Shown here: in pieces, positions 28,564 to 48,575 of the stretch
How the letters are laid out: every line of letters starts with the position of its first letter
Numbering within the stretch: the first letter of the stretch is position 1
Source: Escherichia phage vB_EcoM-ZQ3
Strand: one strand, 5' to 3'
Sequence record: MW630116.1
DNA: 64,000 bases
Notes under the pieces: model-generated
Told to the model about the DNA's origin: nothing
The model's input: only the letters and a program-made list of their open reading frames with translations
Database searches by the model: none
Position numbers and translations under genes: made by a program

Positions 28564-29079
28564 TCACGGCCTCACATAAACATAGTTTCGTAATTGTTGA
28601 GCCCATTTGCTCCAATTTCCTACTATAGTTTTTGTATAAACCTTAGTAAGAGTTTTTTGTACTGGAGCCGGTGGAGGTTCTGTACCAGAGGCACTTCTAG
28701 AATCGCCTGATGAACTTTCTTCTTGGTAGTTATAAATCATTTCAACCGTATAACTAAACACTTTACGAAGATTCTGAGGAGCTCTCCACAAATATAACTG
28801 TGTGGATTCATCTTTTGGTAAATCATCCCATGAAGATGCGGTTTCAAAATCGTCATTTAATCGGTATTTCAATGCATCTGAAGAAAAGCTAAACACACTT
28901 TCATATGTTCCATATAAACGATTACCATCTACCGTAATGCCTTGTGTCGGTTCATAATCTGTTATATTTATTGACACTAAAGTTTCGGTTGTTTCTAACT
29001 GTGGAGTAAAAAGGACGTCAATAGACGCCCCTTCCATGTCTTCTCCTAAGTCGGTATTTAAAGGAAGTATATTAGCCAA
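28564..29079 (-). CDS. conserved protein between genes 5 and 5.4 (gp5.1-like)
   Basis: 171 aa ORF in the 5.1 position; assignment by synteny only. Confidence 0.55.
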
Positions 29080-29935
29080 TTACTGAATTCTCCAATGGTG
29101 TAAATTTATAATCACATTTTTTCAATGCTTTTAAAATTGCGTTATAACTTACATCCGGTAGATTATGTTCAATTGCTTTTTCTCTAAACCATTTATATTT
29201 CTGCGGATGAGGTTTTCCCAAATCCTCCCAAAGTTTTTTGACTTTTTCAATACTAATCCAAGGTTCAACTGATCTTAGTTTTTTATTTCTAGTATCTAAT
29301 CTTGATTTTCTTATTAAAGGATTATTCCAGGATTTTTTCGTTCCTTCTATTTTTCCTGGATGATTAATTAATTTGTTTCTATATTCATCGGATTTCCATA
29401 AAGATTTGACAGTATTAGAAATACGAATTTTTAATGTGGGATCATTTTCAAAAGCAGTTTTCATCGCATTACTCATTTTCTTTCGATATTCCGATTCCGA
29501 ACATCTAAGTTTATTAATTTTTGAAATTTTTTCTGAAAATTCTTTTGTAGATTTTCCTTTTGCCAAAGCTTTAAGTTGAGTTTCTCGATACTCAGGATTA
29601 GACCACATTCGTTTTAAATCGTTTGAAGAAAATCCATCTCCACCGTCTTTTATATTAACACACTGGCCTGTTTTTCTATATTCAGATATCCAAAATTTTT
29701 CTCTTTCATTTAAAACATCGAGTGTTGAAACGAATTCGATAATTTCGAAATCTATAGCATAGCCTGGTTTGTTTTTAATCTTTTGTATATAATCCCCGCT
29801 TCCTACGTAATTATCATCCTCTAGATTAAAATATCTGGATTCATGCTTTCCTATATATATTCGAACCAACCCCTTTGGGTTGGTTACTGTTGATTTATAA
29901 ATGTAACGGAATTGTATGGTTTTGGATTTCTTCAT
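29072..29935 (-). CDS. GIY-YIG homing endonuclease (Seg-like), free-standing mobile gene
   Basis: 287 aa; N-terminal YIY...YIGK...EREKFWI GIY-YIG core as in T4 Seg proteins; C-terminal repeated basic helix motifs (WSNPEYR, WKSDEYR, NUMOD-like). Confidence 0.8.
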   Translation of the reverse strand: MKKSKTIQFRYIYKSTVTNPKGLVRIYIGKHESRYFNLEDDNYVGSGDYIQKIKNKPGYAIDFEIIEFVSTLDVLNEREKFWISEYRKTGQCVNIKDGGDGFSSNDLKRMWSNPEYRETQLKALAKGKSTKEFSEKISKINKLRCSESEYRKKMSNAMKTAFENDPTLKIRISNTVKSLWKSDEYRNKLINHPGKIEGTKKSWNNPLIRKSRLDTRNKKLRSVEPWISIEKVKKLWEDLGKPHPQKYKWFREKAIEHNLPDVSYNAILKALKKCDYKFTPLENSVIG

Positions 29936-29951
29936 AATTTACCTCTGGAAT

Positions 29952-29959
29952 TATTTATA
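29952..29959 (-). promoter_or_regulatory. late promoter TATAAATA upstream of homing endonuclease gene
   Basis: exact TATAAATA on minus strand 17-24 nt upstream of endonuclease ATG, overlapping gene 5 stop. Confidence 0.4.
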
Positions 29960-31691
29960 ACCCGACATCCACACGGCTACCATCAATTGTGTATTGTCCT
30001 GAAGCTACTGAGCTCATTGTAGACATTGTTTCCGCCCAATCCCCAGCAACAGTCATATCAACATTACCATTAACAGTCCATTTAACGTTTCCGTTGACTG
30101 TGTAATCATGATTCCCTTCGACCTGAGTTTTAGCATCGCCTTTAACAAGAATATCTGCATTTCCGTCAACAACTATTTTGATATTACCCTTAACGTAAAG
30201 AGTTCCATCGCCTTCAACAGTTTTAGATTGGTTACCACGAATAAAGATTGTATCATTGCCGTCTATTTGATGGAGGCGGTCTGCCATGTTATAATATATT
30301 TCATTAGCACCAACGTTAACAAGCTTATCGCCAGAAATCAAGAAGTTCCCATCGCCATTAGTGATGTCAAAAAGGTCTTCTACAGTTTTACGAGTACGTC
30401 GCCCAGACGGAGAAACTTCCTCATATGACCCTGTTGGATGAACTAAGCGATAACGTTCATTACCTGGAGTATCGTCAAATTCTTGGATATGACCGCTTTC
30501 TGTTTCCATAGCATGAACGTATGGATACTCACCACGATAACTTGATTCAGGTTCTTTAAAAAGGATACGTGAATCTAACGGAACAGGAGGACCAGCTGGG
30601 TCTTCTGGATCGGTATTTCTAGTAACTAAATCGGCACCAACTCCTGGTGAAGGTGGTGTTTTAACAGGAACGCCATATGATTCCATGTTACCGGTTAAAA
30701 TAATTGTTGTTACACGTGAAGCACGCCCTTTAGTCTGTTGGAACCATAATGAATCACGTCCGGATTTGTATGCGGTTTTCCAATCACCTGTGGCCATTGC
30801 TTTAAGCATAGTATTGAATTTTGCTACACCACCAACGCCCATCTGGAAGCACATGTTTTCTAATGCCATTTGGCGAGATCTGTTCATTTTAGCATAAACA
30901 GGACCTACTTTAGAATTAGAACGAATGTCTTTCTGCATCTTAGCAAGGTCCTTCTCAAATAACGCTGTTGCTTCTTCTAATGTAATAGTTCCCGGATTTC
31001 CTGTTACTTCACGCCCTACTTGATCAGATAACAATTTATTAATTCGAGACATATCTCGGGTTTTTTCCATTACTATAAGATGTCCAATACCTACTGTAGG
31101 ATACCCGAGATGGTCCCAATACACTTTATCACGAAGACCTTCGTCACGACGTAACATTTCTGTTATTGTAAAATTAGGGTCATCATCTTCTGGAATATTT
31201 GCTAAATCTGTATCGTCTGGGTTTATACCATAATCCAAGTTGTTATCTTGAATTACGTTAGAGTTCGAATAATAACCAGCTTCACCACCTTGGTTTAGTA
31301 CGTTCGTATCATTACCTAAACGTCGCGGATACTGGCCTGTCGGGTCTGAAAAACCTTCAAGTCTATTAGGCTTTTCACGTACTATTCCGCCATATGTACC
31401 AAGTACAATCCCGTTTGTTTTCCATTTGTCTAAGAAATGACCATATACTCGAGTTCCTTCAACAGGACCTGTAACAGAACCACCAATACCTGACATTGAT
31501 GCAGACGTAATAGGTTGAATAACAGTCATCCATGGAAGTTTTTCTGTAGGAATACCTTGTACATCACCTTGTGTTCTCTGCGCCGGATGAAGACCAACGA
31601 CTCGAACTCGAACTCGCCCTTGTTTTAATGGGTCCATTCTGTCCTCGACAACACCCACGAACCAATTAAGGCTACTGCTAATCATTTCCAT
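29955..31691 (-). CDS. 5: baseplate hub subunit and tail lysozyme gp5
   Basis: 578 aa; central lysozyme domain (LRRDEGLRDKVYWD...GIGHLI) and C-terminal beta-helix VxGxxxxxV repeats. Confidence 0.95.
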   Translation of the reverse strand: MEMISSSLNWFVGVVEDRMDPLKQGRVRVRVVGLHPAQRTQGDVQGIPTEKLPWMTVIQPITSASMSGIGGSVTGPVEGTRVYGHFLDKWKTNGIVLGTYGGIVREKPNRLEGFSDPTGQYPRRLGNDTNVLNQGGEAGYYSNSNVIQDNNLDYGINPDDTDLANIPEDDDPNFTITEMLRRDEGLRDKVYWDHLGYPTVGIGHLIVMEKTRDMSRINKLLSDQVGREVTGNPGTITLEEATALFEKDLAKMQKDIRSNSKVGPVYAKMNRSRQMALENMCFQMGVGGVAKFNTMLKAMATGDWKTAYKSGRDSLWFQQTKGRASRVTTIILTGNMESYGVPVKTPPSPGVGADLVTRNTDPEDPAGPPVPLDSRILFKEPESSYRGEYPYVHAMETESGHIQEFDDTPGNERYRLVHPTGSYEEVSPSGRRTRKTVEDLFDITNGDGNFLISGDKLVNVGANEIYYNMADRLHQIDGNDTIFIRGNQSKTVEGDGTLYVKGNIKIVVDGNADILVKGDAKTQVEGNHDYTVNGNVKWTVNGNVDMTVAGDWAETMSTMSSVASGQYTIDGSRVDVGL

Positions 31692-38042: not shown

Positions 38043-38114
38043 TGGTGCATCGTATAAAGGTTATTACGGGGAGCTGTTAACTCCTTTATCTTGGTTCGAG
38101 TCCAAGTGCGCCAG
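38043..38114 (+). tRNA. tRNA-Asn (anticodon GTT)
   Basis: acceptor TGGTGCA/TGCGCCA, anticodon stem GGGAG/CTCCT loop CTGTTAA, T arm CTTGG-TTCGAGT-CCAAG; D stem only 3 bp; no encoded CCA. Confidence 0.65.
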
Positions 38115-38188
38115 TAATTTAAACGAAGTAAATTAAGTGCTCTATCCAAATAATAAATACTCCTATATTTTATAGGAGATAATTGGTA

Positions 38189-38854
38189 ATGAGCATTTGT
38201 AAACATTGTAATATGGAATTTGATATTTCTAATAAACCTAAAGGATGGATGGCTAACCACACTAGATGGTGTAAATCCAACCCTAAATTGGAATTGTATA
38301 AAGAAAGTTCTAAATCAGCCATTGCAGCAATGAATAAAGCACGTATAGCTTCAGGTAATTTAAACCAGTATGTTGTATCTAAAAAGACTGGTGTCCCTGT
38401 AGTAATTTCGGAAGAGACTAGACAAAAATTGTCAGCCGCTTCATTAGGTAGAGAACACTCTGAGGAATCTAGAATAAAAATATCTAATGCTCGGAAAAAA
38501 TGGTTGAATGAAAACCCTGATAAACATCCTTGGAAGAAAAATACAAAATTTAAATCTGTGCCTTGTGAATTTTTGAAATCTAAATTAATAGAAAACGGAA
38601 TTTCATTTATTGAAGAATACCAACCGGTTAAAAACCGAGCGTATTGCACGGATATTGCTTTAATAGATAAAAAGATTATTATTGAAGTTAATGGAAACCA
38701 ACATTACTCCAATCCTAAGAAAAAGATTTTGGCCCCTTATTATAAAGAACGCCATGATATTATAAAATCATTAGGATGGGAAATATATGAACTTCATTAT
38801 GCTGAAGTTTATAAAGAAGATATTGTAAATAATTTAATTGCCTCTATAGTGTAA
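38189..38854 (+). CDS. putative homing endonuclease (Zn-finger / NUMOD3-like / C-terminal Vsr-DUF559-like nuclease domain)
   Basis: 222 aa from MSICKHC; CxxC...H..C N-terminus, NUMOD3-like ETRQKLSAASLGREHSEESRIKISNARKKW, C-terminal IIEVNGNQHY...D...GWEIYEL; located in tRNA cluster like T4 segB. Confidence 0.6.
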   Translation: MSICKHCNMEFDISNKPKGWMANHTRWCKSNPKLELYKESSKSAIAAMNKARIASGNLNQYVVSKKTGVPVVISEETRQKLSAASLGREHSEESRIKISNARKKWLNENPDKHPWKKNTKFKSVPCEFLKSKLIENGISFIEEYQPVKNRAYCTDIALIDKKIIIEVNGNQHYSNPKKKILAPYYKERHDIIKSLGWEIYELHYAEVYKEDIVNNLIASIV

Positions 38855-38915
38855 TGGATAGCATATAATCGTTCTAAGGTTAATGGTGAGAGTTCAAATC
38901 TTTCTAGAGGCACCA
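38840..38915 (+). tRNA. tRNA-Arg (anticodon TCT)
   Basis: acceptor GCCTCTA/TAGAGGC, anticodon stem TAATC/GGTTA loop GTTCTAA, T arm GAGAG-TTCAAAT-CTTTC, encoded CCA; overlaps last 15 nt of upstream ORF. Confidence 0.8.
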
Positions 38916-39279: not shown

Positions 39280-39588
39280 AAGCCGGGTCGCTACCGGCAA
39301 GACGTCGGACTGATGTTCCCTGAGTAAGGATTGGTCTTAATAAATCTTTACGATTTGTTAATACCCCCTTACATCACAGCAGAAACGGCGCACAGAATTA
39401 TCGATTCGAGGAAATATCTTTGCCGTAAGCCGAGTAGCGTTTTTGACGGAACGTTCGGATATGGTCGAGATATGGCCTTTTAAAAATATTGAGTAGCGTC
39501 AACTGCTTAATAACCGGGTTCGAATCCCGGCGTTTCGTACAAACACTTACCTAGTAGGTGGAAACCCGACAAGGTTGCCGCAAGGCAT
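39280..39588 (+). ncRNA. ORF-free structured region, candidate small stable RNA(s) or decayed tRNA genes
   Basis: about 310 nt without ORF; hairpin GCCGG-GTCGCTA-CCGGC at 39282-39298; tRNA-like T arm CCGGG-TTCGAAT-CCCGG (39514-39530) with acceptor-like pairing CGGAACG/CGTTTCG but no canonical D/anticodon arms. Confidence 0.3.
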
Positions 39589-39617
39589 AGCCCCTTCCGA
39601 AAGGTTGGGGCTTTTTT
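39589..39617 (+). terminator. intrinsic terminator
   Basis: AGCCCCTTCC-GAAA-GGTTGGGGCT followed by TTTTTT. Confidence 0.55.
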
Positions 39618-41181: not shown

Positions 41182-41253
41182 TTTACAAACTCTTGAGAGC
41201 AGAGTATAATGCTCTCATTGGATAATAAACACCACCAATTGAAAGGTAATAAT

Positions 41254-41847
41254 ATGAACACACTGAAGAAACTTGTTGAATTCATCCGCACTAAACTGGG
41301 TACTGCTATGGCTAAAAATCTGACTGTCGAAGAACAGTATAACGCAGCTGCAGATAAGTTGATTACCCAAATCAAAGAACTAAAAACGGCTTCTGTTAAA
41401 TCTATTAATGAAGAAAAACGTATTCGCGAACTTGTTATTGAAAAGAATAAGCAAGCCGCTTCTAAGGAACGTGAAATTCGTAAGCTCCTGGCTGAAGGAC
41501 AAGATGTTACCATGCATGCTAAGCTTGGTCTTCTGTATCGTCGAACTGCCGAACAACTTAATACAAAAGCTGACGGGTACGCTGCTATGCGAATTGAAAT
41601 TGCTCGTAAGGTGGTTGAACTTGACGATGCTCGTCAGAATCTGGCAATCAAACTCGAATACATTCGTGAAACTCGAGCAGCTAATGCCCTTGGTATCTCT
41701 ACGGCTGATGATGTAATTGAAATCGCTGCACTAACTAAGGTTGATATCGAAGACACTCTGACTCGTGTTGAAACGTTCAATGGCACACCAGCTGGTGTCG
41801 AAACCACTTCTGCTGATGTACAAGAATATATTAACTCTTTGAAATAA
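41254..41847 (+). CDS. hypothetical coiled-coil protein
   Basis: 197 aa from [10 protein letters not shown]; heptad-rich; RBS GAAAGG. Confidence 0.5.
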
Positions 41848-41856
41848 AATAATACG

Positions 41857-41880
41857 GAGGACTCCGGTCCTCCTTTTGGA
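41857..41880 (+). terminator. intrinsic terminator
   Basis: GGAGGAC-TCCG-GTCCTCC followed by TTTTGG. Confidence 0.55.
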
Positions 41881-41896
41881 TAATAAAGGAGTTAAC

Positions 41897-42319
41897 ATGC
41901 GAAACCAAAATAATGATATTGACTCAATGTTCGAAGAGTTCCGAAATAAGGTAAATCCACCTACGTCTTTAGTTGATTCATTACGATATGTTGCAACTGG
42001 ACGTAAATGGTACTGGTCGTCTTCTTATGAGACAACTGAATATGCAAATAACCGAAAATCTTTATTAGCCCCAGGTATTATGATTCATGATATCGGAGCT
42101 ATTGCTAAACTAGTTGCGGACCATGATATTAGATTCACTGATTTCGTTGCTCCTACGTGGTCTGTTTGTTGTTTAAACACTGAATGGGACTATATCAGTG
42201 AACGCTCTGAAGATTATTATGGTTTTAGAGATAAGCTCTTAAGGTCTAACATGTTTTATATCGATACTGAAGTTCTAGTCGATAATAAAATATTACTTTA
42301 CGTTAATCGTCGATTCTGA
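41897..42319 (+). CDS. hypothetical protein
   Basis: 140 aa from MRNQNNDIDSMFEEF; RBS AAAGGAG. Confidence 0.5.
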   Translation: MRNQNNDIDSMFEEFRNKVNPPTSLVDSLRYVATGRKWYWSSSYETTEYANNRKSLLAPGIMIHDIGAIAKLVADHDIRFTDFVAPTWSVCCLNTEWDYISERSEDYYGFRDKLLRSNMFYIDTEVLVDNKILLYVNRRF

Positions 42320-42323
42320 AACT

Positions 42324-42491
42324 ATGTATGAAGGCAAGCCTTTGCTTAAAAGAGTTGATGCTTTAAGTGCTATTGATGCGCTTTATGAAACCATGGTTGT
42401 TAGTCCTAATTTCACTAACAATTTAATCCTTGAGCAATTTATTATGGAATGTAGAGAATATGTCAAAGCCAACCCTATACATGCCAATTAA
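42324..42491 (+). CDS. small ORF ending in conserved FIMECR peptide
   Basis: 55 aa; carries the FIxECR junction motif shared with three other loci; overlaps next gene start. Confidence 0.3.
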   Translation: MYEGKPLLKRVDALSAIDALYETMVVSPNFTNNLILEQFIMECREYVKANPIHAN

Positions 42492-42855
42492 GCCCTGGGC
42501 ATACGAATACAAACGTAAATTAATCCCAAACGAAGTACTATTTGGCCCTATTTTAGCTTTAGCGTTTTTAATCTTTATGATTATAGGAGCTGTTTTAGAT
42601 TCCAATAAAGTTATATCGTCTGATGCAGCGTTTTCATTAATGTTCGTCGCACCACTTATTGTACCATTTTTATTAATGCCTATTAATTGGGCAGGATATT
42701 GGCACCAAGGCCGTCATCACAGAGCTCGAGTTCGTGAGTGGAAAGTTCAGTGCGCAAAAGCCCAAGCTCAGTATGATGAAGCTGTTAAAAAGTATGAATA
42801 CGAAGAAGCTATGGAATTCGTTAAGGAAATAAGATGCAAAAGCCTCAACTCTTAA
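42460..42855 (+). CDS. membrane protein
   Basis: 131 aa from MSKPTLYMP; two hydrophobic helices; basic C-terminus. Confidence 0.5.
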   Translation: MSKPTLYMPIKPWAYEYKRKLIPNEVLFGPILALAFLIFMIIGAVLDSNKVISSDAAFSLMFVAPLIVPFLLMPINWAGYWHQGRHHRARVREWKVQCAKAQAQYDEAVKKYEYEEAMEFVKEIRCKSLNS

Positions 42856-43085
42856 CCGTATGGCCGTCTCTTGGTGAGAACATTCTAATTTTTATTATGA
42901 GTATTGGCATGGGATTTGCCTTTGGATTAGTTGGATTTCTTATTGACGGCGTTGTGTTAGGATTTATAGGGAACACTGGTGGATTCACAGACCAATGGCA
43001 GGACCTAAGATACACCCAAGCCTTTGCATCTATCGCATCATTTTGTACTGTAAGTCTATTTTTACTACGATTTTATAAACCATAA
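42834..43085 (+). CDS. small membrane protein
   Basis: 83 aa, Gly-rich TM segments. Confidence 0.5.
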   Translation: MQKPQLLTVWPSLGENILIFIMSIGMGFAFGLVGFLIDGVVLGFIGNTGGFTDQWQDLRYTQAFASIASFCTVSLFLLRFYKP

Positions 43086-43190
43086 CAAGAAAAATAAAAA
43101 GGTTTACGCTTCTCAAATGATTAGTTATAATGAACTCCTAGCTAGACGTGAAAATGAAACAATAGAAAACTTTATTAAGGAATGTAGAAA

Positions 43191-43496
43191 ATGAGTAAGA
43201 TTATTGAAATTAAAGTACCAGAGTTTAATGATGCTAAATCCGCTTCAGATGCAATTTATAAACTTCTGAATCAAGCTGAACGTATCGAAGAAGAAGCAAC
43301 AAAGATCGCAGACCAATATGCCGTATCATTTTCTGTAGGTGATTATGGTAGTGGTCGTACTTATTATCCTAAGGGTGAAATTGTATCCCAGTGGATGAAA
43401 GATGAAATTGAAAATAATGGTGGTGATGTTAAACGTGAAGGTAATGGTTACGTTATTACTGAAGGTGCTTGGGTTTCGTCTTCTTCGATGTGCTAA
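43191..43496 (+). CDS. small protein, paralog 1 of C-terminal GxWVSSSxxC family
   Basis: 101 aa; ends GAWVSSSSMC; RBS AAGGAA. Confidence 0.55.
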   Translation: MSKIIEIKVPEFNDAKSASDAIYKLLNQAERIEEEATKIADQYAVSFSVGDYGSGRTYYPKGEIVSQWMKDEIENNGGDVKREGNGYVITEGAWVSSSSMC

Positions 43497-43505
43497 GGAA
43501 TCATT

Positions 43506-43778
43506 ATGTCTAAAGAACAAACCGAACTGGCTGAAGCCGTAGCAAAAATCTATGCAGCTATTGAGGCTGCCAAAGAAATTGCTGATAAACAAAACACAAC
43601 ATTCGACTTGTATCCGGCTTATGGTATGGGTGGAACCTATCATTCACCCGGACAACTTAAAGCCGATCTTGAACGTTGTACAAAAAACGGCTATGCTGAA
43701 TGGGCTGACGTTTACCAATACGACTACAACCTGAGCCTCGAAACTGGTGGTTGGATTGCATCTTCTCATACTTGCTAA
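43506..43778 (+). CDS. small protein, paralog 2 of C-terminal GxWVSSSxxC family
   Basis: 90 aa; ends GGWIASSHTC; preceded by TGCTAAGGAA..ATG. Confidence 0.55.
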   Translation: MSKEQTELAEAVAKIYAAIEAAKEIADKQNTTFDLYPAYGMGGTYHSPGQLKADLERCTKNGYAEWADVYQYDYNLSLETGGWIASSHTC

Positions 43779-43787
43779 GGAAACCAT

Positions 43788-43985
43788 ATGTCTCGTGAAT
43801 TAGATTGTGCTGTACGTACCGCAGTAGCTGCTCTGGAAAACCTGTTCCAAATTGCAACAGAAGAACGCGAAGAAGTTACATTGTGGATTGAAGATAACGC
43901 AGGTCTGAATCTCCAGGACGCGATCTCATTATCCAATAATAGCATTACTGTTCAAGGCTGGGTATCATCTAGTTATTCTTGCTAA
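43788..43985 (+). CDS. small protein, paralog 3 of C-terminal GxWVSSSxxC family
   Basis: 65 aa; ends QGWVSSSYSC; preceded by TGCTAAGGAA..ATG. Confidence 0.55.
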   Translation: MSRELDCAVRTAVAALENLFQIATEEREEVTLWIEDNAGLNLQDAISLSNNSITVQGWVSSSYSC

Positions 43986-43989
43986 AACA

Positions 43990-44029
43990 GTTTACAACAA
44001 GATAGGGCTATGTTATAGTAGTCCTATCA
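43990..44029 (+). promoter_or_regulatory. early promoter cassette with palindrome
   Basis: GTTTAC then GATAGGGCTA/TAGTCCTATC inverted repeat. Confidence 0.5.
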
Positions 44030-44047
44030 AATTAAATGGAGTCCACA

Positions 44048-44287
44048 ATGATTTATTACGAAAGTATCGGAACCAAAGTGGTTGGTAAAACCATTACTCG
44101 TGAAAAGTTTGCAAAGATATTCGATATGCGTTATAAAAAATCTGAACACAAAGGCATCCGATTCGAAGATGCACATTGTACAATTTGCCCTTATAATGAA
44201 GATATAAATGGTACAATCGTTCCATTGGTAGAGGCTTCACATGACGACCTCTGGGATGAATATAATATCGCATGTCGCGAAATTTAA
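44048..44287 (+). CDS. hypothetical protein
   Basis: 79 aa from MIYYESIG; GGAG RBS 7 nt upstream. Confidence 0.5.
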   Translation: MIYYESIGTKVVGKTITREKFAKIFDMRYKKSEHKGIRFEDAHCTICPYNEDINGTIVPLVEASHDDLWDEYNIACREI

Positions 44288-44312
44288 GTAATCTAAATTC
44301 GAGGAAATTATT

Positions 44313-45269
44313 ATGATGTTAGTTATTGGTTCTCGTGCACTTCACTATCACGGTCTTATTGATTCTAACGCTATCAAAAATAGTGACTGGGACTTTATTG
44401 CAGACCAAGGTTCTTGGAATGCATTCAAAAATCAAATGATGGGTGTATATGTTCATCAAGATAACCCTGATGTCCAAGTTTTCAAATGCTTCCATAACGG
44501 ACGCGAAACTCATTTTGAAGCATATATTGTTCCGGCAATCACTAATGTCCGTGAACTAGTCGGTGAACTCACTCCTGAAGATTTCACGTCTTCTTATGAC
44601 CTTTTAAAATACGCCAAGAAAAATTTGACTAAAGACCGTTTGAACGGGTTTTACTGGGCAACTCCTGAGATGTGCCTTGCAATTAAGATGTCTCATCGTT
44701 TCAAGAAAAATAATCCATTCTTTTTAAAGACTATGAACCATATTCAGTATCTTCGTGGTAAAGGTGTTAAACTGAATGATGAACTTACTGAAATTATGCT
44801 GAAACGTCAGAAAGAAACCTTGAACTATGCTCACCCAGTTCTTGACACTTCTAAAAGTGCGTTCTTTAAAGATGACATCTATACATATGACCATGATACT
44901 ATTCATGAAGCCATTGCACTAACAGACCGTCCAGCATATACATTTTATATGAAAGACGGTTCTGAAGTCATGACCTCACGCGAGAAGTTCGAATCGTTAC
45001 CAGAAATGGTCAAATTGGCCGGTGTATATGAAGAATCATGTGTACTAGCATTAGAACGTTCTCAGATTCCTAATGGCTTTGAAATCCATCCTCGTGATAG
45101 TTTTATGATGGCATTAGAAAAGGTCTGTACTTCAATCACATCAGGCTGGTTCCGTGAGTATGCCTGGGAGAACTACAGCAAAGTAGTAAGTATGTACCAA
45201 AGCTTAGGACATGATGATTACGTCAAACGTTTCAAACAAAATTTCCATATGGTAAAACCTTTCAAATAA
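44313..45269 (+). CDS. hypothetical protein with possible Pol-beta-type nucleotidyltransferase N-terminal motif
   Basis: 318 aa; N-terminus VIGSRALHYHGLIDSNAIKNSDWDFIAD fits hGS...D-x-D pattern loosely. Confidence 0.5.
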   Translation: MMLVIGSRALHYHGLIDSNAIKNSDWDFIADQGSWNAFKNQMMGVYVHQDNPDVQVFKCFHNGRETHFEAYIVPAITNVRELVGELTPEDFTSSYDLLKYAKKNLTKDRLNGFYWATPEMCLAIKMSHRFKKNNPFFLKTMNHIQYLRGKGVKLNDELTEIMLKRQKETLNYAHPVLDTSKSAFFKDDIYTYDHDTIHEAIALTDRPAYTFYMKDGSEVMTSREKFESLPEMVKLAGVYEESCVLALERSQIPNGFEIHPRDSFMMALEKVCTSITSGWFREYAWENYSKVVSMYQSLGHDDYVKRFKQNFHMVKPFK

Positions 45270-45282
45270 TTTCACCAAACTG

Positions 45283-45322
45283 TTTACAAGGTCTGTAGTT
45301 GTTGATACTATAGACCTATCAA
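45283..45322 (+). promoter_or_regulatory. early promoter cassette
   Basis: GTTTAC...TACTAT with AGGTCT/AGACCT inverted repeat. Confidence 0.5.
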
Positions 45323-45348
45323 AACAAATGAGTGAATGGAGATACAAA

Positions 45349-45549
45349 ATGACTACTTTGAATAAACGTTTCGGTAAAGCTAAACCTGGCTGTGCAGCAG
45401 AACGTCGTTACATTTTCGCTCAGTTAGAAGATGTAGAGTATCAGATTAATCAAGTTCACATTACTGGCATCGAGCCTATGTGTGGCCTTGAAGCTCTTCG
45501 TGAAGTTCGTGACGGGTATCGTCGTGATATCGAAGAAATGTCAAAATAA
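45349..45549 (+). CDS. hypothetical protein
   Basis: 66 aa from MTTLNKRFGK; GGAG RBS. Confidence 0.5.
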   Translation: MTTLNKRFGKAKPGCAAERRYIFAQLEDVEYQINQVHITGIEPMCGLEALREVRDGYRRDIEEMSK

Positions 45550-45589
45550 GTGTACAAACTGATAGGGCTATGTTATAGTAGTCCTATTA
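45550..45589 (+). promoter_or_regulatory. early promoter cassette (variant -35 GTGTAC)
   Basis: near-identical to cassette at 43990. Confidence 0.45.
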
Positions 45590-45607
45590 AAACATGAGGA
45601 GAATAAT

Positions 45608-45913
45608 ATGAAATTAACAGAAACCAACCGAATTGGCCTTTTAACGATACTTACATCACCTTTTTATGCTGTGCTTTCTGTTGCAGTATTACAAAAGGCC
45701 TATGGCATGGACGGTGTTCCTGGTTGTGTATTTTTATCACCGTTTTTGTTATTAGTTGGTGCTCTGTTATTATACGCGACAACAGGTTTCGACCATAATG
45801 TTTGGGTCAAGTTTAAACGTAGATTAACTGAAGAAGAACACGCTGAAGCTCGTAAAAAAGCTATTGAATCTACCAATCTAGAAAATTTCATTAAAGAATG
45901 TCGAGGAAAATAA
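45608..45913 (+). CDS. membrane protein ending in conserved FIKECR peptide
   Basis: 101 aa; two TM helices; C-terminus ENFIKECRGK. Confidence 0.55.
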   Translation: MKLTETNRIGLLTILTSPFYAVLSVAVLQKAYGMDGVPGCVFLSPFLLLVGALLLYATTGFDHNVWVKFKRRLTEEEHAEARKKAIESTNLENFIKECRGK

Positions 45914-45914
45914 T

Positions 45915-46601
45915 ATGAATAGTTCTAAAGTGTTTAATAGTCAAGCTCGTGCAGTAGGTGGTTTTGCTCATGCGATTAAAAATGACCAGATTAAAAACGA
46001 GCCTATGTTCTTCAACTGTAGTTTAGAATTTGCTTATAATAACGGTGGTCCTATTACTCGCAGCTTCATCATGAACTTGCCTGATGATTGGAACACCGAC
46101 CAGGTTGTATTTGATTCACGGGTCCACATGCTGATGCCTGGTTGGTACCCTGCTATCCCGGGTTATCACCATGATGATGTACCACGCCCGGATATTCCGG
46201 TTGGTCAACACTTTATTACTGCAGGACAACCTGATTATGACAATCCTCGCTATTTGTCTGAACATATTCTTGGTCTTGTTAACGCTGATGTGTGTCCTAC
46301 TCATTTTGCAACAGGAACTGCAGAGTTCAGTCAGATTCCTGATGGCGAACTTATCTATCGCCAGTGGCACAAAGAAGTCCTCGAAAAAATTGAAAAAGGT
46401 GAACTAGAGAAATGGGAAGCTCCAGATCGTACTCTTCTTCAGTTTGATTGGCAAACATGGCACACTGGTTCTCGTGCAATTAGTAATGGATGGCGTTGGT
46501 TCGGACGTGTATCTCGTAATACAGACCGAGTTAAAAAGATTACCAATGAAATTCGTGTCAATGCTCAAGTTTATCTGGAATTCCCTATGGAAGGCTGGTA
46601 A
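45915..46601 (+). CDS. hypothetical protein
   Basis: 228 aa; His/Trp-rich; no motif recognised. Confidence 0.55.
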   Translation: MNSSKVFNSQARAVGGFAHAIKNDQIKNEPMFFNCSLEFAYNNGGPITRSFIMNLPDDWNTDQVVFDSRVHMLMPGWYPAIPGYHHDDVPRPDIPVGQHFITAGQPDYDNPRYLSEHILGLVNADVCPTHFATGTAEFSQIPDGELIYRQWHKEVLEKIEKGELEKWEAPDRTLLQFDWQTWHTGSRAISNGWRWFGRVSRNTDRVKKITNEIRVNAQVYLEFPMEGW

Positions 46602-46694
46602 TGATTAACAAAACATATTGGTCTTAATATAGACGATGGCAACGAAGGTATTTCATACTATTCAGTAGATTGGACAGGATGTCCATCCTACTTA

Positions 46695-47006
46695 GTGAAA
46701 CATATTTGCCAAGAATTTAAAATCGACCAGCCAGCAGGTATTATCGTGAACAGATACATTAATGGATATCAACCTATCGATGAAGTAATACGAACAACTC
46801 AAGCTGAGCTTGAAAAGTTTTTCAATAAGTGCCAATGGATAACAGGATGGATTATATTTGTACCGTCTATATGGTTTTTCAGTACTAAGGTGAGTTCTTT
46901 CGGTTTTGTTGATATTATTGCTATCTTATTAGCATCTAGTATCATAAGTGTTGTTGGTGGCATCATTGGCGGCGGTACCGCCGCCATCATTATTAAATCT
47001 TATTAA
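46695..47006 (+). CDS. hypothetical membrane protein (GTG start, uncertain)
   Basis: 103 aa; Gly-rich hydrophobic C-terminus; no convincing RBS. Confidence 0.35.
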   Translation: MKHICQEFKIDQPAGIIVNRYINGYQPIDEVIRTTQAELEKFFNKCQWITGWIIFVPSIWFFSTKVSSFGFVDIIAILLASSIISVVGGIIGGGTAAIIIKSY

Positions 47007-47091
47007 AAGTAGTTTACAAGAACATAAAGCCAAGATAAAGGCCAAGAATAATGAAGTTGAACGTTTTATTACCGAATGCAGGAATTTGAGA

Positions 47092-47327
47092 TGAGTATAG
47101 CAATTTACATTAAATCAGAATCATGTGATAGTTATCTGTACACATACGATAAAGACGTGTCAGAAGAAAAAATCAAAGACGATCTTAATATGGACCTTGA
47201 TATGTTCTGTCCTATTGCAGATTACAAACTTGCGGTCTCTAATAGTGAAAGTCCATCTAAAGAAACGCGCATTGAAGAATTTATGTCCGAATTAATGGCT
47301 AAATCATGGGACCGAGATGATGAGTAA
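47092..47327 (+). CDS. hypothetical acidic protein
   Basis: 78 aa from MSIAIYIK; RBS AGGAATTTGAG. Confidence 0.45.
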
Positions 47328-47774
47328 GAAAAATAAAGTGAAAGAACTATCAGCCGGTATTATTTTCCTTACCGAAGATAAAGAATTATTCATGGGGCGT
47401 GTAACTGGTTCTCGTCCTAAAGGTTCTTTAGCTCATCGGTGGGATATTCCTAAAGGACGTGTCGAGCCCGCCGAATCTCCTATTGAAGCCGCTATTCGCG
47501 AATGCGAAGAAGAAACTGGGTTTACACAATATGACCTGCCTTCCTGAAAGACCTAGGTGAACATCATTACTCAGACAATAAGAATATTCATCTGTTCCTA
47601 TATACCATCCCTGTAGAGCACGAGCAATTCAGAAACAGTGTTTGTAATTCCTATCATACATTCCCAGACGGACGACAGATTCCTGAATTTGATGCATTCG
47701 CTTTAATTAAACCTTCTCAATGGGAATATGTAATGGGCAAATCATTATATAAGGTGCTCACTACCCTCCTATAA
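47320..47774 (+). pseudogene. nudE: Nudix hydrolase NudE homologue interrupted by a -1 frameshift near 47535-47545
   Basis: N-terminal 74 aa with Nudix box GRVEPAESPIEAAIRECEEETG ends at TGA 47545; C-terminal 77 aa continue in the -1 frame to 47774; sum 151 aa equals intact T4 NudE. Confidence 0.6.
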
Positions 47775-47808
47775 GTAATAAATACCTCCTATAAACGTGG
47801 GAGGTATT

Positions 47809-48297
47809 ATGAATATATTTGAAATGCTTCGTAATGACGAAGGTCTTAGACTGACTTTATACAAAGACACCGAAGGCTTTTGGACGATTGGCATAGGCCA
47901 TTTAGTAACAAAGAACCCGTCTTTAGCCGTAGCTAAAGCTGAACTTGACAGAATGATCGGTCGTAAATGCAACGGTACAATTACCCTTGATGAGGCTGAA
48001 AAGCTATTTAATGAAGACGTTGATAAAGCCGTTCGCGGAATCTTGGGTAATGCTAAACTTAAACCGGTATATGATTCTTTAGATGCAGTTCGTCGATGTG
48101 CATTGGTCAATATGGTCTTCCAAATGGGTGTAGCAGGCGTCGCAGGTTTTACTAATTCTCTTCGTATGCTTCAACAGAAACGTTGGGATGAAGCGGCAGT
48201 AAATCTAGCCCAATCTAAATGGTATCGTCAGACACCTAATCGCGCGAAACGCGTAATCTCAACATTTAAAACAGGAACTTGGAAAGCGTATATATGA
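47809..48297 (+). CDS. e: lysozyme (endolysin)
   Basis: 162 aa from [31 protein letters not shown]; catalytic Glu11/Asp20/Thr26 context conserved as in T4 lysozyme. Confidence 0.95.
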
Positions 48298-48575
48298 AAA
48301 CATATAGTGAATTTTTATCAGAATCTATTCTTAACGAAGCTACTGACACATTTGCAACTAAGCTAGGTGCAGCTTTGGTTGAAGCTGAAAGTCTATTAGC
48401 ACGTATTTCTGAACTTGCTAGTAAGATAGATACTCGCAAATTTGAGCGCACCAGTGATATCGTTAAGCTTGAAGCCTTGTTGCGTATGTGTGATAAACCG
48501 GAAGAAATCGCTAAGAACGGCTCGCTGATGAAACAACGTCTTGAAAAATATATTTCAGGCGCTTCAGAAAAATAG
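48294..48575 (+). CDS. internal protein-like protein with capsid-targeting N-terminus
   Basis: 93 aa from [11 protein letters not shown]; ATGA overlap with e stop. Confidence 0.6.

Follow-up and report, generated by a model that had tools for sequence, protein, structure and literature searches.

The split nudE gene of the Mosigvirus vB_EcoM-ZQ3 lies in a cluster of genome-unique indels that probably stem from sequencing or assembly error

The window analysed here, a stretch of 64,000 nucleotides from the Escherichia phage vB_EcoM-ZQ3, belongs to a T4-type, RB69-like genome (genus Mosigvirus), and 151 phage records match the region around its nudE gene (47000-48300) with 95-99% identity. The gene is followed by the T4-type lysozyme gene e, in the order e.6-e.5-e.4-e.3 ... 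e.2-ORF130c-nudE-e-denV that is also found in RB69, the corresponding order in T4 being e.6-e.5-e.4-e.3-e.2-nudE-e. T4 NudE, or NudE.1 (gene e.1, AAD42569.1, 151 aa), is 64% identical over 147 aa to the window protein once the reading frame of the latter is repaired. Both genes lie just upstream of e and downstream of e.2-e.6, and their products share the Nudix box, including its catalytic EE pair, E65/E66 of the window protein corresponding to E64/E65 of NudE.1, whose mutation abolishes activity (bioRxiv 10.1101/2024.04.04.588121). The substrates of NudE.1, which are FAD, Ap3A, ADP-ribose, NADH and NAD-capped RNA, have been shown for the T4 enzyme only (bioRxiv 10.1101/2024.04.04.588121). To judge from sequence and position, nudE of the window is orthologous to T4 NudE.1 and RB69 NudE, is unremarkable in itself and occupies the customary place; it differs from the T4 gene in that a one-base deletion breaks it after codon 73.

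The gene begins with ATGATG, and from the first ATG at 47317 the frame runs for 76 codons to a TGA at 47545-47547. In the -1 frame, a TGA at 47532-47534 directly precedes a second open stretch of 79 codons, which extends from 47535 to a TAA at 47772-47774, the two frames overlapping by 13 nt (47535-47547). The same division is seen in a tblastn search with RB69 NudE (AAP76031.1, 152 aa), of which residues 1-73 align at 47317-47535 with 97% identity and residues 74-152 at 47535-47771, in the other frame, with 100% identity. The initial annotation, made from the nucleotide sequence and its open reading frames, had described nudE as split by a single -1 frameshift, and translation and tblastn alike confirm the two frames. 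It had also proposed alignment to intact nudE genes of related phages as a means of locating the indel; with three intact relatives, this alignment gives GACCCTGCC in the relatives and GACCTGCC in the window, that is, a CCC run that has lost one C at the boundary between codons 73 and 74 (Table 1). The lesion sits at the start of the string CCTGCCTTCC within which the shift had been placed, although the run concerned is CCC instead of the CC/TT run that had been suspected as the site of an error. The joined halves, which had been given as 151 aa, the length of T4 NudE, do come to 151 aa when counted from the second ATG (47320) and to 152 aa from the first.

Table 1. Features of the nudE locus and of the upstream indel sites, in positions of the window
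Feature	Position	Strand	Description
Intergenic indel, frd.3 / e.6	41231..41232	+	Extra AC (2 nt), a duplication absent in relatives
e.5 (198 aa repaired)	41897..42491	+	A4 at 42287-42290, A6 in relatives
e.3 (119 aa repaired)	42834..43194	+	AA at 43052-43053, A in relatives
e.2, first break	46601..47094	+	TT at 46624-46625, T in relatives
e.2, second break	46601..47094	+	AAA at 46995-46997, AA in relatives
nudE 5' fragment	47317..47547	+	76-aa ORF ending at TGA; identical to QWY13424.1; Pfam NUDIX 52.6 bits
Nudix box	47455..47523	+	G47-x5-E53-x7-R61-E62-C63-x-E65-E66-x-G68-F69; complete, upstream of the lesion
Ala52 allele	47471..47471	+	C for G, giving GCC (Ala52) where most relatives have GGY (Gly); variable 'x' of the Nudix box
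nudE lesion	47535..47536	+	CC in the window, CCC in every relative
nudE 3' fragment	47535..47774	+	-1 frame, 79 codons followed by TAA

As written, the sequence does not contain the whole Nudix domain in any one translatable ORF. The 5' fragment holds the Nudix box, as the initial annotation had stated, and holds it complete at residues 47-69 of 76, the signature GX5EX7REUXEEXGU being represented by G47, E53 and the stretch R61 E62 C63 E64 E65 E66 T67 G68 F69. This fragment still matches the Pfam NUDIX profile (PF00293) with 52.6 bits, compared with 57.5 bits for the repaired protein and a gathering cut-off of 21.1, but the match covers profile positions 4-59 of 134, less than half of the Nudix domain. 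The remainder of the domain lies in the -1 frame, where the C-terminal piece has no Pfam match by itself and no ATG, GTG or TTG start that yields an ORF of at least 30 aa, so that it would not be translated alone. Restoration of one C returns the whole domain to a single translatable ORF of 152 aa. The GenBank record of the phage (MW630116) annotates the 76-aa stub, and its entry QWY13424.1, 'nudix hydrolase [Escherichia phage vB_EcoM-ZQ3]', is identical to the fragment described here.

The deletion is confined to the ZQ3 record among the sequences compared. CCC is present at the site in all 24 relatives fetched as DNA, these being seven GenBank phages, ten contigs with the common intact allele and seven contigs with exactly the repaired allele, and the extra C is found in 146 of 146 phage records matching the 91 nt around the site, the matches listed spanning 92 nt and none of them being identical to the window. 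Scanned for the pattern of the deletion allele, IMG/VR, the JGI metagenome contigs and the GTDB genomes gave no match, the IMG/VR scan having low power in that the wild-type pattern itself matches just two contigs there, and an exact-protein look-up placed the 76-aa product on one contig only, that of the ZQ3 record (170,042 bp). RB69 NudE and the Mosigvirus alleles P0016 and P0017, unlike the window gene, are each encoded by an uninterrupted ORF that has the full CCC, and P0017, which has Ala52, is exactly the repaired window protein and is found on seven other contigs. A change of Gly52 to Ala (47471) had looked unique in comparison with nine relatives and was considered as a second lesion, but was rejected on account of these seven contigs; residue 52 is the variable 'x' of the box and is not conserved in T4, and Ala52 appears to be a natural allele.

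Two contigs from independent samples, L027 (Logan SRR23253329, 974 nt) and L028 (ENA ERZ28535859, 937 nt), each align to the window with no mismatches and a single gap, the missing C. L027 starts at window position 46998, right after the unique extra A of e.2 (46995-46997), which is probably a coincidental contig break. A long-standing, decayed pseudogene is excluded by the lack of any change besides this one gap over 937-974 nt, and no unique substitutions relative to the 24 relatives were found anywhere in 46-48 kb. Since the flanking sequence is identical to that of intact alleles, the deletion, if it is real at all, is extremely recent.

The context that is decisive for reading the nudE split is a cluster of further indels upstream, which the initial annotation had overlooked. 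The genes e.5, e.3 and e.2, situated 0.2-5 kb upstream of nudE, contain four more unique frameshifting indels, and one more is intergenic. Frame breaks in e.5, e.3, e.2 and nudE are all evident in tblastn searches with the RB69 proteins. As written, e.2, which encodes a membrane protein, meets a stop after 8 codons, and e.5 yields a 140-aa stub (GenBank QWY13411.1) that occurs in the ZQ3 record only. The five coding indels, that of nudE included, are unique in comparison with the 24 relatives, and at each of the four upstream coding sites 66-134 phage records match, even the best of them with the gap, while the inserted AC is absent from all 20 relatives that align at 41231-41232. Six unique indels are thus found within approximately 6.3 kb (41231-47537), five of them breaking four neighbouring accessory genes. 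With the exception of the AC insertion, each lengthens or shortens a run of 1-6 identical bases, the affected runs having 1-3 bases and, in one case, 6. When the indels are undone, e.5, e.3, e.2 and nudE encode proteins of 198, 119, 163 and 152 aa, respectively, and exact copies of the first three are found on 8, 194 and 2 other contigs, so that the repaired genes are intact alleles in circulation. In other Mosigvirus genomes (L012-L024), e.2 is called at 132, 154 or 159 aa compared with 163, and e.5 at 124 or 131 aa compared with 198-200; some of the length variation in these two genes would thus be natural or stem from annotation.

The excess in this region concerns indels and not substitutions. 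In comparison with the 24 relatives, six unique indels and 11 unique substitutions fall in 41-48 kb, whereas 48-56 kb has no unique indels and 15 unique substitutions (Fisher p = 0.019); within 46-48 kb, there are three unique indels and no unique substitutions. The chance of five coding frameshifts falling within 5.25 kb of the 64 kb is approximately 2e-4, or approximately 5e-3 when the count is restricted to the accessory genes (roughly 29 kb). A generally error-rich stretch was rejected as a description of the region, as unique substitutions are not raised in 41-48 kb and only indels are in excess. Comparison with the Mosigvirus genome vB_EcoM_TU01 (MZ560701.1) showed no coding frameshift where the two align within the 35-kb structural-gene block or within 47.6-64 kb.

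The alignment with TU01 also brings out differences elsewhere in the window. A 223-aa ORF at 38183-38854 (+), absent from TU01, lies between tRNA-Asn (38043-38114) and tRNA-Arg (38840-38915), overlapping the start of the latter as listed, and has weak Pfam matches to NUMOD3 and DUF559 (endonuclease-like); it probably represents a homing endonuclease gene that has inserted among the tRNA genes. A 287-aa ORF at 29072-29935 (-), in a segment of approximately 875 nt absent from TU01, separates the gp5 baseplate hub/lysozyme gene (29955-31691) from the gene that follows, and has no Pfam match at E <= 0.01; by eye, its N-terminus (…RIYIGKH…YVGSG…) looks like that of GIY-YIG homing endonucleases. Downstream of the tRNA genes, the window differs from TU01 at 39553-39590 by two 1-nt deletions and a 9-nt insertion, in a stretch annotated in TU01 as a 47-aa hypothetical CDS.

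Record-specific single-base frameshifts are familiar in deposited phage genomes, and TU01 provides an example from the same genus. Its RNA ligase gene is split into two CDS by one extra A in a short A run (L004:1162-2161), whereas in the window the gene is intact as a 332-aa ORF (84-1082); an indel at window position 794 that was considered as a lesion of the window was rejected for this reason, being the frameshift of TU01 itself. The likeness to nudE lies in a record-specific frameshift of the same kind in a conserved gene, and such frameshifts therefore do occur in deposited Mosigvirus genomes, although the gene and the genome are different and TU01 openly signals low quality by its N bases.

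Taken with the cluster, this points to a technical origin. The initial annotation had named a genuine pseudogene, a sequencing error and a programmed frameshift as readings of the split and had chosen none; the sequencing error is now favoured, whereas neither a long-standing pseudogene nor a programmed frameshift has held up. The deletion in nudE is probably an error of base calling or of assembly, in approximately 6.3 kb of weakly supported sequence (41231-47537), and what favours this reading is the local, indel-only excess of genome-unique changes, nearly all of them in the lengths of short runs, within an ordinary assembly. We infer a technical cause for the other indels as well. A segment of the assembly that was poorly covered, or closed separately, would give rise to an excess of indels only, and the real ZQ3 phage would then make a normal 152-aa Nudix hydrolase. 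Some features fit an error less well, in that the affected runs are short and not the long homopolymers of the classic error, and in that substitution errors are not raised in the stretch.

It is also possible, though less likely, that the deletion is real and that nudE, e.2, e.3 and e.5 have suffered very recent loss-of-function frameshifts, arising during isolation or passage or in a local mutagenic event and tolerated because the genes are dispensable. If the sequence is true, ribosomes would stop at the TGA at 47545-47547, and the resulting stub, with its Nudix box and less than half of the domain, would presumably be inactive and the gene a null allele. The four broken genes are all non-essential accessory genes and no structural gene is affected, which counts against an error inasmuch as selection would also confine real null alleles to dispensable genes. 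Such alleles would be tolerable, as T4 without NudE.1 activity is viable, a catalytic mutant of NudE.1 showing the same burst size and lysis only approximately 15 min later (bioRxiv 10.1101/2024.04.04.588121). The truncated e.5 and e.2 variants called in other phages and the unraised level of substitutions, which is expected of an accurate assembly, likewise agree with real mutations. Against them stands the need for six independent indels in 6.3 kb when the adjacent 8 kb, with equally dispensable small genes, has none, and for these to have arisen in 46-48 kb without accompanying unique substitutions. Moreover, none of the six is common to any of the 24 relatives or of the 66-146 phage records compared per site, and one of them is the loss of two bases from an A6 run, which is atypical of replication slippage.

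A more specific form of real mutation, in which all six indels result from a localised burst of frameshift mutagenesis or from selected loss of e.2-e.5 and nudE, so that ZQ3 would be a natural NudE-null Mosigvirus, seems improbable. Such a burst might be caused by a tract of error-prone, recombination-dependent repair synthesis or by topoisomerase-associated frameshifting; alternatively, a host defence might select for simultaneous loss of the accessory block formed by e.2-e.5 and nudE.

Programmed recoding, by a -1 ribosomal shift or RNA polymerase slippage within 47535-47547, would yield a full-length NudE, and with an overlap of just 13 nt, the protein made by a -1 shift there would be close to native. 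In this geometry, with the upstream ORF ending soon after the -1 frame opens, the locus resembles the -1 frameshifting of dnaX and of phage tail chaperones (G/GT), but the resemblance ends there, as the window has neither a slippery heptamer nor a stimulatory structure nor conservation. The overlap, C CTG CCT TCC TGA, includes no X XXY YYZ heptamer, the candidates T GAC CTG, C CTG CCT, G CCT TCC and T TCC TGA all failing the slippery pattern, and no long run of A or T that would allow transcriptional slippage. At -11.5 kcal/mol, the fold of the downstream 111 nt is no more stable than that of shuffled sequence (mean -15.4; z = +1.31), and this downstream sequence is identical in relatives that need no shift. 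The two-frame arrangement itself occurs in none of the 146 phage records and none of the 24 fetched relatives. Programmed frameshifting was rejected on these grounds of heptamer, RNA fold and conservation, and recoding of any kind is very unlikely. That an active Nudix enzyme is assembled from two separately produced halves of NudE is scarcely credible, as nothing speaks for it beyond the two open stretches, and the 3' stretch has neither the start codon nor the Pfam match of its own described above as absent, in a split that is present in one record only.

There is no new kind of system at the nudE locus, and the main value of the finding is for annotation: the e.5, e.3 and e.2 stubs of ZQ3 and its 76-aa 'nudix hydrolase' ought not to be read as signs of gene loss in Mosigvirus, or as a recoding site. 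NudE.1 of T4 is the first enzyme of any phage shown to decap NAD-RNA (bioRxiv 10.1101/2024.04.04.588121), and given the interest in this enzyme, a natural NudE null allele, if confirmed in ZQ3, would make the phage a useful strain.
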